Shown here piece after piece: positions 44,301 through 56,630 of a stretch of DNA of 64,000 bases. Position 1 is the first letter of the stretch. Each line of letters opens with the position of its first letter. The position numbers and the translations under genes are program-made. Below the pieces are notes generated by a model. It did no database searches. It was not told the origin of the DNA and was given only the letters and a program-made list of their open reading frames with translations. Source of the DNA: Candidatus Yanofskybacteria bacterium (GTDB taxonomy: Bacteria; Patescibacteriota; Minisyncoccia; 2-02-FULL-40-12; IGHO2-01-FULL-4-A); assembly GCA_016181175.1 (NCBI GenBank), contig JACOZV010000001.1, positions 182,185 through 246,184 of the forward strand. Reading direction: 5' to 3'.

Positions 44301-44329
44301 AAAACCCCAAACGGGGTTTTGTTTTGTTT
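44301..44329. terminator. bidirectional terminator between neuB (+) and the aldehyde dehydrogenase gene (-)
   Basis: aaaacccc-aaac-ggggtttt followed by gttttgttt. Confidence 0.65.
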
Positions 44330-45785
44330 AAATTAAATTCAGATCGTATTTTTCGTAAATAGTTTGCCATTCCGAATAAGTATCAAGTGCTTGAGTGCCT
44401 GGTTCGCGCCGGCCGTTGCCGGAATCGCGCAGTCCGCCGAATGGCAGATGCGGTTCACTCCCGCAAGTCGGGCCGTTAATTGAGATCACACCCGCTCTAT
44501 AATGATTTTTGAAATATTCTTTGCGGTTGATGCTATCAGTGTGAATGGCGCCCGTTAGGCCGAACTTAGAGTTATTGGCAAGTACCGTTGCTTCGGATAA
44601 ATCTTTTACTCTAAATAAGCATGTTGCTGGTCCGAACAATTCTTTTTGGGAGATCTGCGTATTGGGTTTTGCTTCTTCAATAATCGTGGGTTCAATATAA
44701 TAACCATTGGGAAATTCTGGATGGTTGAAATGTCGGCCACCGGTTAATATTTTAGCTTTTTCTTCCCAGGCAAGCTGTATATTTTGTAAAATTTGATCGT
44801 GCTGTTTTTGACTGATCACTGGTCCCAAATTATCTTTATCTGTGAACCCTATTTTTAGAGCCAAAGTTTTATCACACATTTTTTGTTTGAATTTTTCGTA
44901 AATTGAATCAAAGACAATAATCCTGCTTGCCGAAGCGCAGCGTTGGCCGGCATTGCTGAATGCCGAAAAAACAGCGCATTCAACCGCCCAATCAATATCA
45001 GCGTCATCGCAAACAACGAGAGGATTTTTACCGCCAAGTTCCAGACAAACTCTGGCAAGTCTTCTGCCGGCCATTTCGGCAATTTCCCGGCCCGCCGTTA
45101 CTGAACCCGTAAAACTGACAAGGTTAACATCATTATTACTAACCAAGAATCTACCCGTTCGAATACCGCCTTGAATTACTGAAAAAACCCCCATTGGCAG
45201 TCCTGCTTCTTTTAATACCTTGGCGAACCATATGGCAGTATAGGGCGTATATTCCGATGGCTTCATAATCACCGTATTTCCACACAGCAATGCCGGAAAC
45301 GCTTTCCAGGCCACATTAGCAATAGGTGTGTTAAAGGAGGTGATTAAAGCGCAAATTCCAATAGGTTGGCGTATGGTGTAGGCAAATCTGTCGGGTATCG
45401 CGCTTGTTGTTGTTTGGCCGTAAAATCGTCTGCCTTCACCGGCGATAAAGTAACCAAGCTCAATGGCGGCTTGTACTTCGCCGCTGGCATCTTTGGGTGA
45501 CTTACCTGTTTCCAGCGCAACAATTTCAATTATTTCTTGTTTGCGAGACTCCATAAGCTGGGTTGCTGTTCTTAAAATTTCGCTCCTTTTAATGACGGAT
45601 ATGCGTGACCAATCTTCAAAAGCCGCTATTGCGGTCATAAAAATTATTTGATGTTCTTTGCCCTCAGCTACCAAACCCAGTTGAGATCCATTCGCTGGAT
45701 TATATTTGGGTAAATATGTTTCTTCATCAGACAGGGCGACCTCATTATCGGCTATCCAATGGTGAATTTTTTCAGGATATTTCAT
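44328..45785 (-). CDS. NAD(P)-dependent aldehyde dehydrogenase
   Basis: 'ELGGKNP' and 'FSNAGQRCASASRIIV' (catalytic Cys region), plus 'GTQALDTYSEWQTI'. Confidence 0.7.
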   Translation of the reverse strand: MKYPEKIHHWIADNEVALSDEETYLPKYNPANGSQLGLVAEGKEHQIIFMTAIAAFEDWSRISVIKRSEILRTATQLMESRKQEIIEIVALETGKSPKDASGEVQAAIELGYFIAGEGRRFYGQTTTSAIPDRFAYTIRQPIGICALITSFNTPIANVAWKAFPALLCGNTVIMKPSEYTPYTAIWFAKVLKEAGLPMGVFSVIQGGIRTGRFLVSNNDVNLVSFTGSVTAGREIAEMAGRRLARVCLELGGKNPLVVCDDADIDWAVECAVFSAFSNAGQRCASASRIIVFDSIYEKFKQKMCDKTLALKIGFTDKDNLGPVISQKQHDQILQNIQLAWEEKAKILTGGRHFNHPEFPNGYYIEPTIIEEAKPNTQISQKELFGPATCLFRVKDLSEATVLANNSKFGLTGAIHTDSINRKEYFKNHYRAGVISINGPTCGSEPHLPFGGLRDSGNGRREPGTQALDTYSEWQTIYEKYDLNLI

Positions 45786-45842
45786 TGATTTTACTCATTT
45801 TTTAAATGAACTTTTGCTAAACCGTACATTAATTTTTAAAAA

Positions 45843-45866
45843 AAGTAAAGGCAAACAAAAGCCCCC
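45843..45866 (-). terminator. candidate terminator for the minus-strand transketolase operon
   Basis: On the minus strand: agctccc-tacc-gggggct followed by tttgtttg (one G-U pair). Confidence 0.35.
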
Positions 45867-45876
45867 GGTAGGGAGC

Positions 45877-54601: not shown

Positions 54602-54606
54602 TCCAT

Positions 54607-54658
54607 AGAGTAGTATTTTCTACTCTTTTTTATTTAAAAAAACCGACTGCTGTCGGTT
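54607..54658. terminator. pair of back-to-back terminators (one per strand) between convergent genes
   Basis: agagtag-tatttt-ctactct+TTTTTT for the + gene, and A-run+aaccgac-tgct-gtcggtt for the minus gene. Confidence 0.6.
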
Positions 54659-55889
54659 AATGGCAAGTATTAAAATATTCTATTGTTCTGCGCAATGCGT
54701 CGGCTTGCTTTTGCATTTCTTTTTTATTTTCCTGGTTGGTGGTGAAGTACATTAATCGCGGTTGAAGATATTCGGCATTGGGACAACATTGATTATCTTT
54801 TAGAAAATTTTTAAAATCCTCACCTTGTTCGTATTGGTCATGGAAGAAACAGCCGGTCTGGCTAAGATTAAAAATTGCCGGATCATTATAAACCAAGGCC
54901 AGAGCCGCCCTGATCTTGTCTCCGCCGAATTGAATAAACGTGTTCCTGAATTCATACCAACTGATTCCGAGTTTTTCTTGCCCTTCAAACAAAACGGCGT
55001 AAGTCCAAAATGTTGGCTTGGAACCCGGCGGCGCTGATTGCGTTTTTAACCAATCGCAGTTTCCAATGGCTTGCTTATACAATTTTGCCATGGCAACTCT
55101 TTTACTCAAGAACCAGTTGATTCTTTCCAATTGAGCCAGGGCCACGGCTCCCGTAAATTCTGACATTATATAATTTAAACCAATGGAGTCATGTCTCAAA
55201 AAGCTGGGGTCTTGAATTCTCAACGGGTTTTTGCCTACTGATCCAGCGTTTTCCGCGGAGACATTCTTAAAACCCAGATGCCCCACCTTTCTAATTCTTT
55301 CGGCAAGCCCATTTTGTTTTGTTATGAGGGCGCCGCCTTCGCTACTGGAAAGCATTTTGTATTCGCCAAAACTGAAAATACCGATGTCGCCGATTGTTCC
55401 CGCTACACGGCCTTTATGATCTCGCCCAAAACAACATTGAGCGCAATCTTCAATTATTCTAAAATCATTCCCCCTTGCTATGGACATGATTTCATCCATA
55501 TCGCATATGTGGCCGCACAGATGGACGGGCATGATGACTTTAGTTTTGGGTGTTATCTTTCTTTTGACATCTTCAGGATCAAGTAAAAATGTATCAGATC
55601 TGACATCCGCGAAAACCGGCTTGGCTCTACAATAAATCACTGCCAAAGTGCACATAAGTGGCGTCAGGGGCGGCACGATCACTTCGTCTCCCGGGCGAAT
55701 GCCGCAGGCAAGAAGAGCCTGGTGCAGCGCGGCGGTTCCAGATGTCGTGGTTATGGCGTATGGCATGTCGAATACTTGCCCGAATTTATCTTCAAATCTT
55801 TTGATCATGCTTCCGTTGGCAAGTTTGAAATCGGAATCCAGCACTTCTTTTAAGTATTTGAGCTCATTGCCCTTAAATCGCCAACCCAT
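54657..55889 (-). CDS. DegT/DnrJ/EryC1/StrS family PLP-dependent sugar aminotransferase
   Basis: 'AITTTSGTAALHQAL', 'SFGEYKMLSS' (Lys region) and the overall AAT-I fold pattern. Confidence 0.65.
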   Translation of the reverse strand: MGWRFKGNELKYLKEVLDSDFKLANGSMIKRFEDKFGQVFDMPYAITTTSGTAALHQALLACGIRPGDEVIVPPLTPLMCTLAVIYCRAKPVFADVRSDTFLLDPEDVKRKITPKTKVIMPVHLCGHICDMDEIMSIARGNDFRIIEDCAQCCFGRDHKGRVAGTIGDIGIFSFGEYKMLSSSEGGALITKQNGLAERIRKVGHLGFKNVSAENAGSVGKNPLRIQDPSFLRHDSIGLNYIMSEFTGAVALAQLERINWFLSKRVAMAKLYKQAIGNCDWLKTQSAPPGSKPTFWTYAVLFEGQEKLGISWYEFRNTFIQFGGDKIRAALALVYNDPAIFNLSQTGCFFHDQYEQGEDFKNFLKDNQCCPNAEYLQPRLMYFTTNQENKKEMQKQADALRRTIEYFNTCH

Positions 55890-56030
55890 AATTTTATCCT
55901 ATTTTTGAAAGATCGATATAACGTCATACCAATCTAACACTTTATTAGCGTGCGTCAAGGTTGGGCGATTGACCGACGATGCTTTAGATGTAATAATTCC
56001 ACAAACAAGTACTTTTAAAAGGAGATTTTT

Positions 56031-56630
56031 ATGTTAACCACGCTTGACATACATATGTTTTTAGTCAGGAGACAAATTGTGTATAGCGCATTAAGTAATT
56101 CGTCTAAGTTTAAGAGGCAAATTTTAAATGTCATTAGTCTTATCAAGAAGACATTTGATTCAGGAAATAAAGTTCTGATTTTCGGCAATGGCGGGTCGGC
56201 GGCGCAGGCTCAGCACTTTGCGGCGGAACTTGTTTGTAAGTTTGAGAAAAACCGTCAGGCTTTGCCTACTATTGCTCTAACGACTGATTCTTCAATTTTA
56301 ACTGCGCAAAGCAATGACAATGGCTTTGAGACGGTTTTTTCAAGACAAATTGAAGCATTATGTCGACCCGGTGATTTGGTAATCGGATTGACCACAAGCG
56401 ATACAGACGGTCAGCACTCTGCCAATATCCGCCATGCTTTTTTGACAGCCCAAAAGAAGGGTGCCAAATCAATCGGATTATTCAGTCAAAAAACTAAAAA
56501 TCTATTGCCGCTGGTTGATGTCGCAATTATTGTGCCGGCAACTAATACCGCCATAATTCAAGAAGTTCATCAGACAGTTATACATCTACTCTGTTTTTTA
56601 ATAGAAAGCGAGTTGGTTGGCGAGTCTTAA
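56031..56630 (+). CDS. SIS-domain sugar-phosphate isomerase (GmhA-like phosphoheptose isomerase)
   Basis: 'KVLIFGNGGSAAQAQHFAAELV', 'DLVIGLTTS', 'TAIIQEVHQTVIHLLC' resemble GmhA/DiaA. Confidence 0.6.
   Translation: MLTTLDIHMFLVRRQIVYSALSNSSKFKRQILNVISLIKKTFDSGNKVLIFGNGGSAAQAQHFAAELVCKFEKNRQALPTIALTTDSSILTAQSNDNGFETVFSRQIEALCRPGDLVIGLTTSDTDGQHSANIRHAFLTAQKKGAKSIGLFSQKTKNLLPLVDVAIIVPATNTAIIQEVHQTVIHLLCFLIESELVGES

Follow-up and report, generated by a model that had tools for sequence, protein, structure and literature searches.

Two gene cassettes, very probably independent, for CMP-activated ulosonic acids in a surface-glycan locus of Candidatus Yanofskybacteria, one of them with a specialised transketolase-like enzyme

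[quoted passage not shown] The described systems closest to the genes treated here are the Kdn pathway of Bacteroides thetaiotaomicron (KDN-9-phosphate synthase, KDN-9-phosphate phosphatase and CMP-Kdn synthetase) and the Kdo pathway (KdsD, KdsA, KdsC and KdsB), which share with them the logic of a phosphoenolpyruvate (PEP)-condensing synthase, a C0-type haloacid dehalogenase (HAD) phosphatase and a CTP_transf_3 cytidylyltransferase. The genes lie in a 64,000-nucleotide stretch of a Candidatus Yanofskybacteria genome (candidate phyla radiation, CPR/Patescibacteria; GCA_016181175.1, contig JACOZV010000001.1, positions 182,185 to 246,184), hereafter the window, in whose coordinates all positions are given. 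Within an ABC-transporter (Wzm/Wzt) surface-glycan locus of this window, a block of sugar-precursor genes is considered highly likely to represent two independent, conserved and uncharacterised cassettes for CMP-activated 3-deoxy-2-ulosonic acids (cassettes A and B), not one pathway, with the transketolase-like enzyme of cassette A being a specialised one. The Kdn and Kdo pathways have no transketolase-like enzyme, aldehyde dehydrogenase (ALDH), short-chain dehydrogenase/reductase (SDR), radical S-adenosylmethionine enzyme (rSAM) or GFO/IDH/MocA oxidoreductase (GFO). They differ further in that the window isomerase, a SIS-domain protein that would supply an aldose phosphate to cassette B as KdsD does in the Kdo pathway, is of the GmhA type and not the KdsD type, and in that the synthases are of the NeuB type and not the KdsA type, with scores below the cut-offs. 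The proposal of a first-pass annotation that the block (44328–56630) encodes synthesis of non-standard ulosonic acids is borne out, its interpretation as a whole being supported in part.

Cassette A consists of NeuB1, the SDR, the transketolase-like (Tkt-like) enzyme, the ALDH and the cytidylyltransferase CT3a, joined in most other genomes by a KdsC-type phosphatase. Its genes in the window, and the gene that follows CT3a, are:

43257..44300, + strand: NeuB1, a PEP-condensing ulosonic acid synthase with SAF (PF03102, 250 bits, plus SAF)
44328..45785, - strand: ALDH (PF00171, 479 bits)
45877..47784, - strand: Tkt-like thiamine diphosphate (ThDP) enzyme, fused, three-domain, 635 aa (PF00456, PF02779, PF02780)
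47798..48628, - strand: classical SDR (PF13561, 132 bits)
48742..49494, + strand: CT3a, a PseF/NeuA-like CMP-ulosonate synthetase (PF02348, 84.5 bits)
49500..50831, + strand: 443-aa GT-B-fold protein, putative CMP-sugar transferase (no Pfam match; AlphaFold2 model)

The SDR gene ends 13 nt upstream of the Tkt-like gene, and the ALDH gene lies 91 nt downstream of it on the same strand. NeuB1 scored 296 against TIGR03569 (cut-off 400) and CT3a 149.5 against TIGR03584 (cut-off 205.7). The open reading frame (ORF) of the Tkt-like gene spans 45877–47823 (648 aa, TTG start), with the true start at M14 (47784), which gives the NCBI protein at 100% identity and coverage. The ALDH, transketolase, SDR, rSAM, HAD, DegT and SIS genes named by the first-pass annotation were all found where it had placed them, with strong family matches, and to these are added genes it had not singled out, namely two separate CTP_transf_3 genes, the 443-aa protein and the GFO/IDH/MocA oxidoreductase. 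Its description of the genes as interleaved with NeuB and NeuA genes holds for the two CTP_transf_3 genes, which are inside the range, and not for the two NeuB genes, which lie just outside (43257–44300 and 56775–57725).

The fused Tkt family was surveyed by a family-alignment scan of one genome per GTDB species, in a listing that contained no CPR genome, and all retrieved loci were searched with the window proteins, partners being counted within 10 kb; all counts are among the matches listed. The fused-type set comprised 42 distinct loci (39–82% identical to the window protein), and the comparison set 44 loci with split N/C transketolase genes (roughly 30% identical) from Clostridia, Flavobacteriia and others. 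In 34 of the 42 fused-type loci, representing at least 12 phyla, two or more of NeuB, SDR, ALDH and CTP_transf_3 were present, compared to none of the 44 split canonical tkt loci (Fisher p = 1.2e-16). The commonest layout was a co-directional operon of NeuB, a KdsC-type HAD, SDR, ALDH, CTP_transf_3 and Tkt, with ALDH present in at least 25 of the 42 loci. The loci were distributed among the Melainabacteria/Cyanobacteriota, Chloroflexota, Gamma- and Alphaproteobacteria, several ‘delta-proteobacterial’ lineages, Myxococcota, Verrucomicrobiota, Actinomycetota, Acidobacteriota, Bdellovibrionota, Elusimicrobiota, Bacteroidota and Patescibacteria, and across phyla the partner proteins were 38–63% identical to those of the window; orthologues of NeuB1 (50–63% identity, in other phyla) and CT3a (56–59% identity) were themselves encoded in cassette A loci. 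All-against-all clustering of the ORFs of the 42 loci found no further recurrent family, and cassette A is therefore taken to be self-contained.

The active site of the Tkt-like enzyme separates it from transketolases of central metabolism. All three domains (N-terminal PP, Pyr and C-terminal; PF00456, PF02779 and PF02780) scored above their cut-offs, and the closest solved structure was human TKT (211 bits). For the residue comparison, 46 fused-family sequences were aligned with 44 split canonical enzymes, with human TKT numbering taken from the alignment. Residues H37, H77, H110, D155, N185, H258, E366, F392 and His 428 were kept in the fused family and in the split canonical group, and the ThDP/Mg2+ and catalytic His/Glu residues were invariant in all 46 family members and the window protein. 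In transketolases, residues R318, S345, H416 and R474 are the contacts of the sugar phosphate, and D424 hydrogen-bonds the C4-OH of the donor or the C2-OH of the acceptor. In the window protein, P, D, L and S, respectively, occupy the four phosphate positions. Across the fused family, R318 was lost in 41 of 46 sequences and S345 replaced by D in 45, while in all 46 H416 was replaced by L, Y, F or M, D424 by P, and R474 by S, I or N. The split canonical enzymes keep R318 and R474 (44/44 each), S345 (37/44), and H416 and D424 (40/44 each), and all five residues belong to the active-site list of human TKT (PMC8016368). Positions newly invariant in the family were P at 421, H or K at 426 and, with one exception, G at 260. 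In the window protein, human positions 345, 421, 424 and 426 correspond to D356, P432, P435 and H437. Read from these substitutions, the protein is predicted to be a ThDP ketol-transfer enzyme whose distal pocket no longer binds sugar phosphate, and because the residues that bind sugar phosphates are all lost, production of a C7 ketose phosphate, the role given to it by the first-pass annotation, is unlikely.

These results bear on the simplest alternative, that a housekeeping pentose-phosphate transketolase is located in the glycan locus by chance, a reading for which the full three-domain architecture, the complete set of cofactor residues, the database name ‘transketolase’ and five fused-type loci without cassette partners could be cited. 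The small size of CPR genomes and their reported dependence on the non-oxidative pentose phosphate pathway also count in its favour. However, the same arrangement of the gene with SDR, ALDH, NeuB and CTP_transf_3 is seen again in the 34 loci noted above, including those of Methylobacter, Chromatiales, Polyangiaceae and Actinomycetes, organisms expected to carry a canonical tkt too, and the window protein scored below every NCBIfam transketolase cut-off (NF004559, 394, cut-off 488; TIGR00232, 140, cut-off 682). The loss of four sugar-phosphate-binding residues and of the Asp that contacts the acceptor hydroxyl (Asp424) argues that this is not the housekeeping tkt, and the alternative is considered extremely improbable. 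The case of a sole housekeeping tkt merely inserted here, named by the first-pass annotation as one that would overturn its reading, is contradicted by both synteny and active-site residues.

Arrangements of cassette A vary among genomes (loci are given as L numbers where they need to be told apart). Three close relatives (72–82% identity) keep SDR-Tkt-ALDH beside NeuB, the protein of 443 aa and either one CTP_transf_3 gene or two, and a Giovannonibacteria genome has, in this order, SDR, Tkt, epimerase, NeuB, NeuC in two copies, CTP_transf_3 and ALDH. A complete Sungiibacteria genome (CP066690.1; L005) encodes a CTP_transf_3::SDR fusion, ALDH and Tkt within 6 kb, an Acidobacteria genome has SDR-Tkt-ALDH-NeuC, two short ORFs and NeuB-NeuA, and GCA_900206355 has CTP_transf_3, NeuB, SDR and ALDH, then GDSL and MBOAT genes, then Tkt. 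The Methylobacter cassette (L026) lies within an rml / FkbM-methyltransferase / Wzt (with Wzt_C) O-polysaccharide locus resembling that of the window, and by analogy the cassette A sugar could possibly serve as a chain-terminating cap. The SDR/Tkt/ALDH trio also occurs with NeuC-NeuB-NeuA, a route of the N-acetylneuraminic acid (Neu5Ac) type, in L007, L010 and L020, with the HAD route elsewhere; the cassette A HAD is of the KdsC / KDN-9-phosphate phosphatase type (L026 copy, 99.9, cut-off 107). In two loci, L039 (Bacteroidota) and L028 (Polyangiaceae), a class-III aminotransferase (PF00202, 177 bits; the two copies 59% identical) replaces ALDH. As separate observations, PDH-E1 alpha/beta-like ThDP gene pairs (E1_dh + Transket_pyr) occur a few kb from the Tkt-like gene in L005 (Sungiibacteria; 16870–18809) and L012 (GCA_900206355; 16086–18105), flanked by NDP-sugar epimerase/dehydratase genes. 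The pairs are reminiscent of two-carbon branch attachment to keto-sugars and would represent a second type of ThDP enzyme in these glycan loci.

The chemistry proposed for cassette A, in which the Tkt-like enzyme shortens the side chain of an ulosonic acid by two carbons, is put forward as tentative, with a likelihood somewhat short of even. The simplest scheme we can infer that uses every cassette A gene has six steps. NeuB1 would condense PEP with a hexose-6-phosphate (or with N-acetylmannosamine in the NeuC-bearing variants), and the HAD phosphatase would take off the phosphate. The SDR would then oxidise the C8 hydroxyl, which is the penultimate one in the glycerol side chain, creating the terminal ketol HOCH2-CO-CHOH-R that is the donor motif of transketolases, from which the Tkt-like enzyme would split off C8-C9 as ThDP-bound glycolaldehyde and leave a C7 aldehyde. 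The ALDH would turn this aldehyde into a carboxylate, and CT3a would make the CMP-sugar, which the neighbouring GT-B protein of 443 aa would transfer. The product would be a CMP-activated 3-deoxy-heptulosaric (C7 dicarboxylic) acid of the type of 3-deoxy-D-lyxo-hept-2-ulosaric acid (Dha) or, in the L028 and L039 variants, a 7-amino sugar made by the aminotransferase. Dha itself was set aside as the product, based on our own stereochemical reasoning that removal of C8-C9 of Kdn or Neu5Ac gives the L-arabino and not the D-lyxo configuration, and only a Dha-type acid is claimed.

Several features of the loci point to individual steps. That the cassette HAD is of the KdsC / KDN-9-phosphate phosphatase type suggests a phosphorylated aldose as the substrate of NeuB, in line with the Kdn and Kdo pathways, and the occurrence of the trio with both the NeuC and HAD routes suggests that it most likely acts on the glycerol side chain common to Kdn- and Neu5Ac-type sugars. 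The swap of ALDH for a class-III aminotransferase points to an aldehyde product, an aldehyde being the common substrate of ALDH and omega-transaminases. For the SDR, the CTP_transf_3::SDR fusion in L005 and the relatedness to gluconate 5-dehydrogenase and KduD, which oxidise a penultimate hydroxyl in sugar acids and are among its nearest named models (scores below cut-off), provide a lead that it may act on the ulosonate. In 8-keto-Kdn or 8-keto-Neu5Ac read from C9, the ‘C4’ oxygen would be the pyranose ring oxygen and the hydrogen bond of D424 of no use, fitting its replacement by Pro. A CDP-alditol or teichoic-acid-like scheme, considered by analogy with Bcs1 and TarIJ and in light of the CTP_transf_3::SDR fusion and Glyphos_transf matches, was rejected, since it is NeuB and a KdsC-type phosphatase that are conserved as partners.

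The three-step core of the proposal has a counterpart in the late steps of plant tartaric acid synthesis, for which a sequence of L-idonate dehydrogenase, transketolase cleavage of 5-keto-D-gluconate and tartaric semialdehyde dehydrogenase has been proposed (PMC7970118). There, an ordinary transketolase is invoked, and the transketolase and semialdehyde dehydrogenase steps are still candidates (PMC7970118), whereas cassette A encodes a dedicated, remodelled paralogue beside its partners, with a 3-deoxy-2-ulosonic acid destined for a glycan as the proposed substrate. The L028/L039 variant is paralleled by 8-amino-8-deoxy-Kdo (Kdo8N) synthesis in Shewanella, where the oxidase KdnB and the aminotransferase KdnA (PDB 5k8b) convert the terminal carbon to an aldehyde and then an amine. 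It differs in that the L028/L039 aminotransferase is of class III, not the DegT type, and is accompanied by the Tkt-like enzyme. Formation of Kdo8N removes no carbon, the aldehyde arising from direct oxidation at C8.

The reverse reaction, in which the Tkt-like enzyme adds a C2 ketol to a sugar aldehyde, or a glycolyl-type C2 unit in the manner of Rif15, to give a higher-carbon or glycolylated ulosonic acid, is considered unlikely. Transketolase chemistry is reversible, a remodelled distal pocket suits an unusual acceptor as well as an unusual donor, and Rif15, a two-subunit transketolase likewise recruited to a biosynthetic cluster (that of rifamycin) and acting on a non-canonical partner substrate, can in secondary metabolism hand a C2 unit to an acceptor that is not a sugar (PMC6002545). 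However, Rif15 is split and uses phosphorylated ketose donors to add C2, while the cassette A family consists of fused proteins that have lost the phosphate site and are proposed to remove C2. Phosphorylated ketose donors would still need the lost phosphate-binding residues, an enzyme that consumed the aldehyde would leave no obvious substrate for ALDH or the class-III aminotransferase that replaces it, and the core cassette has no acyl-activating enzyme or acyltransferase. A further alternative, judged quite improbable, is that the Tkt-like enzyme frees glycolaldehyde from a ketose, to be converted by ALDH to glycolate or by the aminotransferase to ethanolamine and used to decorate the ulosonic acid. 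Glycolaldehyde would fit the ALDH/aminotransferase swap equally well as the common aldehyde, and bacterial nonulosonic acids are known to bear N-glycolyl and similar acyl groups. Yet the cassette is conserved without any ligase, CoA-transferase or acyltransferase, the SDR and the CTP_transf_3::SDR fusion would have no role, and the rebuilding of the distal pocket around a new invariant Asp, Pro and His would be left unexplained.

A number of points weigh against side-chain truncation by cassette A. Sequence does not dictate in which direction the ThDP reaction runs, and it could be synthetic. The argument that 8-keto-Kdn and 8-keto-Neu5Ac, read from C9, would be 3S,4R as transketolase donors need was reasoned and not computed. 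In comparison with named enzymes, the SDR and ALDH score under all curated cut-offs, with the ALDH reaching no NCBIfam equivalog cut-off, the best NCBIfam matches of the SDR being PRK09186 (NF006619; 155, cut-off 255) and gluconate 5-dehydrogenase (144 bits, below cut-off), and a PDB sequence search returning only generic or unnamed enzymes (6fkv, 341 bits, for ALDH; 6uh2, 146 bits, for SDR). Cassette A of the window has no adjacent HAD, L041 has a cassette without ALDH or any operon replacement, and the partnerless loci, with no cassette gene within 10 kb, are L036, L038 and L042 (Ignavibacteria/Melioribacteraceae) and L045 and L063 (Gaiellales). As an observation on the sequences themselves, these five share Y/F-P-H-I at human positions 416, 424, 428 and 474.

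For the 443-aa protein encoded after CT3a, the AlphaFold2 model (pLDDT 90.7) has a GT-B fold, with Foldseek matches to UDP-GlcNAc 2-epimerase, PglA, MshA, the Kdo transferase WaaA and TagF. All of its 426 homologues are annotated as hypothetical, and for nine the length of the longest contig is the same as for a Tkt-family match, suggestive of shared contigs. Judged from the modelled fold, the protein makes a sensible candidate transferase for one of the CMP-sugars. In five cassette A loci, a protein of ~600 aa without a Pfam domain (family f8; e.g. L016, 11836–13665) is encoded directly after the Tkt-like gene and may be the cognate transferase of those lineages.

Cassette B consists of a SIS isomerase, NeuB2, a KdsC-type HAD, an rSAM, a GFO oxidoreductase and CT3b, with a DegT aminotransferase as an accessory gene:

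50824..51603, + strand: CT3b, the second CTP_transf_3 cytidylyltransferase (PF02348, 67.7 bits)
51632..52642, - strand: GFO1, a GFO/IDH/MocA oxidoreductase (PF01408, PF02894, PF22725)
52650..53840, - strand: rSAM with a twitch-like auxiliary cluster and a helical N-terminal extension of ~120 aa, 396 aa (PF04055, PF13186)
54029..54601, + strand: C0 HAD of the KdsC / KDN-9-phosphate phosphatase type, 190 aa (FFDVDGVFTD motif)
54657..55889, - strand: DegT-family pyridoxal phosphate aminotransferase, accessory (PF01041, 252 bits)
56031..56630, + strand: GmhA-like SIS aldose-ketose isomerase, 199 aa (PF13580, 64 bits)
56775..57725, + strand: NeuB2, a short NeuB-family synthase (PF03102, 219 bits, without SAF)

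A metagenome scan with an alignment of the rSAM family gave 80 further loci, for a total of 82 rSAM-cassette loci, and gene-content counts were restricted to the 38 loci of at least 8 kb. In these, CTP_transf_3 was found in 27, NeuB in 25 (16 of the short NeuB2 type), SDR in 16, KdsC-like HAD in 11, and GmhA-like SIS and DegT in nine each. The GFO gene, separated from the rSAM gene by 7 nt in the window, was immediately downstream of it in 55 of the 70 loci with room. The order HAD-rSAM-GFO-NeuB2-SIS recurs (e.g. L108, L112, L115, L122, L136 and L164). The contexts of two relatives gave rSAM-GFO-HAD-NeuB(short)-CTP_transf_3 and a SAR11 locus in which the rSAM-GFO pair lies between NeuB and CTP_transf_3 genes. 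CT3b-like genes occur with NeuB2, HAD and rSAM in L102, L112, L115, L122, L154 and L175, and also in the Tkt variant loci L028 and L039. The set of HAD, rSAM, GFO, NeuB2, SIS and CT3b recurs in many marine metagenome contigs, from which it follows that CT3b, GFO1, rSAM, HAD, SIS and NeuB2 of the window form a cassette. DegT is not regarded as a core gene because only the nine loci just given carry it.

The same survey addresses the integrated pathway implied by the first-pass annotation, in which the transketolase makes sedoheptulose-7-phosphate, the GmhA-like enzyme converts this to heptose-7-phosphate, NeuB condenses the heptose-7-phosphate with PEP to a C10 acid (or, more broadly, a C8-C10 ulosonic acid), the KdsC-like enzyme dephosphorylates it and the rSAM modifies it. 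All of the genes lie within 12 kb in the window, SIS, NeuB2, HAD and CTP_transf_3 are linked in many loci, and the marine SIS proteins have the canonical GmhA catalytic residues and phosphate loop, making heptose-7-phosphate a credible substrate of NeuB2. The Tkt-like gene, however, was found with the SIS/rSAM cassette in none of the 82 loci (and ALDH in none of the 38 of at least 8 kb), while SIS was absent from the 42 Tkt-family loci except that of a close CPR relative (L002). An enzyme without sugar-phosphate-binding residues is unlikely to make or use sedoheptulose-7-phosphate, and in the CPR SIS the phosphate loop contains an insertion. The integrated pathway is thus considered very improbable; of the pairing of transketolase and isomerase in one pathway, what stands is that the isomerase travels with a NeuB paralogue, and what falls is that the transketolase travels with the isomerase.

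The association of a phosphoheptose-type isomerase with a NeuB paralogue is accordingly retained as part of cassette B. The SIS gene adjoins NeuB2 in L108, L136, L146 and L164 and belongs to the same cassette in L102, L112 and L115. The window, L102, L108, L112, L115, L136 and L164 show no NDP-heptose context (heptose kinase, GmhB and a nucleotidyltransferase), the SIS neighbours being NeuB2, HAD, CTP_transf_3, rSAM and GFO. The linkage of SIS to NeuB2, the KdsC-type HAD and a CMP-transferase makes a route from ketose phosphate through aldose phosphate, ulosonate phosphate and ulosonate to CMP-ulosonate well founded. The SIS protein scored 167 against TIGR00441 (cut-off 209) and 128 bits against Campylobacter jejuni GmhA (PDB 1tk9), with the catalytic and metal residues (AQHxAxE; IQExHxxxxH) all conserved relative to C. 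jejuni and Burkholderia pseudomallei GmhA. In the window and the CPR relative L002 (1788–2387), the phosphate loop has an insertion of 4–8 aa, with TSDTDGQHS replacing STSGNS (S-T-S-G-x-S), while the marine cassette B proteins have the canonical loop without insertion; the length or charge of the substrate of the CPR enzymes may therefore differ. NeuB2 shares 33% identity with NeuB1 and scored 206 against the TIGR03569 equivalog (cut-off 400). The HAD has an internal insertion such that only its C-terminal half aligns (NF058599, 81, cut-off 180; TIGR01670, 69, cut-off 107). HAD genes adjoin rSAM and NeuB2 in L094, L108, L112, L115 and L164, and a KdsC-type HAD is encoded with a PEP-condensing synthase and a CMP-transferase in the window, L094, many marine loci and the cassette A loci; the single HAD of the window possibly serves both cassettes.

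The rSAM belongs to a family of ~390–400 aa, with 999 matches at E<1e-10 in bacteria and archaea, none with a specific functional name. Seven cysteines were invariant in 47 sequences (C131, C135 and C138, and C326, C344, C390 and C393), of which the four extra ones would be enough for one auxiliary cluster. The N-terminal extension, with a conserved Y-L-x-Y-R motif, was confirmed, at ~120 aa and not the 110 aa first given, the CxxxCxxC being at residues 131–138. A PDB sequence search matched only DesII, BtrN and BlsE (28–37 bits), the score against TIGR04426 was 37 (cut-off 450), and the top Foldseek match of the AlphaFold2 model (pLDDT 91) was BtrN (E 6e-12, TMt 0.72), followed by the peptide maturase SuiB, DesII, BlsE, SkfB and anSME, with DesII and BlsE within the top ten. 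This proximity in sequence and fold to BtrN, DesII and BlsE, which likewise have a single auxiliary cluster bound by four cysteines, fits the earlier suggestion that the rSAM modifies a sugar. With DesII the window enzyme further shares a long N-terminal extension and a nearby DegT-type aminotransferase. It differs from all three in having a GFO/IDH/MocA partner and a NeuB / CTP_transf_3 context in place of a TDP-sugar or aminoglycoside pathway. The PDB matches of the DegT protein are sugar aminotransferases, including KdnA (5k8b; 136 bits). As a side observation, a 426-aa protein without a Pfam or NCBIfam match (57809–59089) has homologues that adjoin DegT genes in L003 (274 bits) and L097 (223 bits; rSAM-GFO pair alongside), and it seems to pair with the DegT aminotransferase.

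For cassette B, the GmhA-like SIS would make an aldose phosphate, either heptose-7-phosphate or mannose-6-phosphate, which NeuB2 would join to PEP and the HAD would dephosphorylate. The rSAM/GFO pair would then modify the sugar, by oxidation or by deoxygenation in the manner of DesII or BtrN, and CT3b would activate the modified product. Oxidation or deoxygenation of the sugar by the pair is probable, perhaps together with the nearby DegT in a DesI/DesII-like way, both at low confidence. Heptose-7-phosphate would lead to a C10 acid and mannose-6-phosphate to Kdn; the sequences fit either, and a heptose-derived C10 acid is possible.

A further described system in which an SDR, a GFO-type enzyme and a CMP-transferase are encoded side by side, as here, is the CMP-legionaminic acid locus with ptmA (SDR), ptmF (GFO-type) and legF/ptmB (PMC4481668). 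The Leg pathway differs in having no transketolase-like enzyme, ALDH, KdsC-type phosphatase or rSAM. The SDR of the L026 cassette scored 106 against the PtmA model NF050062 (cut-off 350), and no PtmF-specific model was matched by GFO1 in the NCBIfam profile search. The best SDR model, PRK09186, named only ‘oxidoreductase’ in the search result, is a flagellin-modification-protein-A-like family. The SIS/SDR pair was also considered as the known front end of the Leg pathway, with PtmF as a GmhA-like SIS, and this was rejected, as PtmF is a GFO-type oxidoreductase (PMC4481668, Table 5).

The surrounding locus encodes the putative exporter and glycosylation machinery. The Wzm/Wzt pair, which also adjoins NeuB1 in the relatives L001 and L002, consists of:

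40904..41761, + strand: Wzm-type ABC-2 permease, glycan exporter (PF01061, 63.5 bits)
41670..43145, + strand: Wzt-type ABC ATPase with a weak Wzt_C (PF00005, 78.8 bits; Wzt_C, 19.9 bits)

Upstream of this exporter lies a long series of GT4, GT2 and PMT_2-TPR glycosyltransferases. Four consecutive genes (13950–20946) encode three C-terminal TPR proteins (626, 580 and 606 aa) and a 529-aa PMT_2-type membrane glycosyltransferase, and a further PMT_2 protein of 565 aa (39231–40928) adjoins the Wzm/Wzt genes, which suggests protein or lipid-linked glycosylation with several acceptor specificities. Two very large ORFs without a Pfam match (8734–12336, 1200 aa; 24532–27561, 1009 aa) and a 1066-aa protein with lamin-tail and PQQ/beta-propeller domains (4897–8097), all described as upstream of the glycan genes, may be glycosylated surface proteins. 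For the first ORF (68–721), the match to glycoside hydrolase family 1 covers just the C-terminal third (profile positions 323–451), and the ORF is either a fragment or a gene cut by the window edge. Downstream of the cassettes, a HisF/HisH/WbuX set (59046–63513; WbuZ/WbuY/WbuX-type acetamidino) with a third PseF-like cytidylyltransferase and the second GFO oxidoreductase encoded after it is probably a third nonulosonic acid branch of the locus, bearing an amidino group.

No description of either cassette was found in the searched literature, a match in a C. butyricum paper proving unrelated, and no component of either reaches the curated cut-off of a characterised equivalog. The added enzymes are without counterpart in the Neu, Leg, Pse, Kdn and Kdo pathways, and the loci probably contain a new enzyme function. 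The strongest form of the proposal, that cassette A is the first genetically defined route to a 3-deoxy-heptulosaric (Dha-type) CMP-sugar, through a phosphate-blind transketolase paralogue that takes two carbons off the side chain of a C9 sugar, and that cassette B makes a heptose-derived C10 ulosonic acid, is possible but doubtful. If true, it would extend the transketolase family by a new class of reaction and constitute a new diversification of sialic-acid-like sugars across at least 12 bacterial phyla, and the ten-carbon acid of cassette B would be a sugar class not described in the searched literature. Both the biosynthesis of Dha and its nucleotide form were listed as unknown in 2025 (PMC12168206), and chain shortening, if true, would provide candidate enzymology and a CMP-activated form for heptulosaric acids.

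The cassettes add a ThDP enzyme, an ALDH and an rSAM/GFO pair to the repertoire of ulosonic acid synthesis, and span the CPR, Proteobacteria, relatives of the Cyanobacteriota, Chloroflexota, Actinomycetota and marine plankton. The Tkt-like family would represent an enzyme of central metabolism rebuilt for glycan tailoring, with the catalytic core retained and the phosphate site erased. In metabolic reconstructions of the CPR, such ‘transketolase’ genes may be miscounted as evidence of the pentose phosphate pathway.

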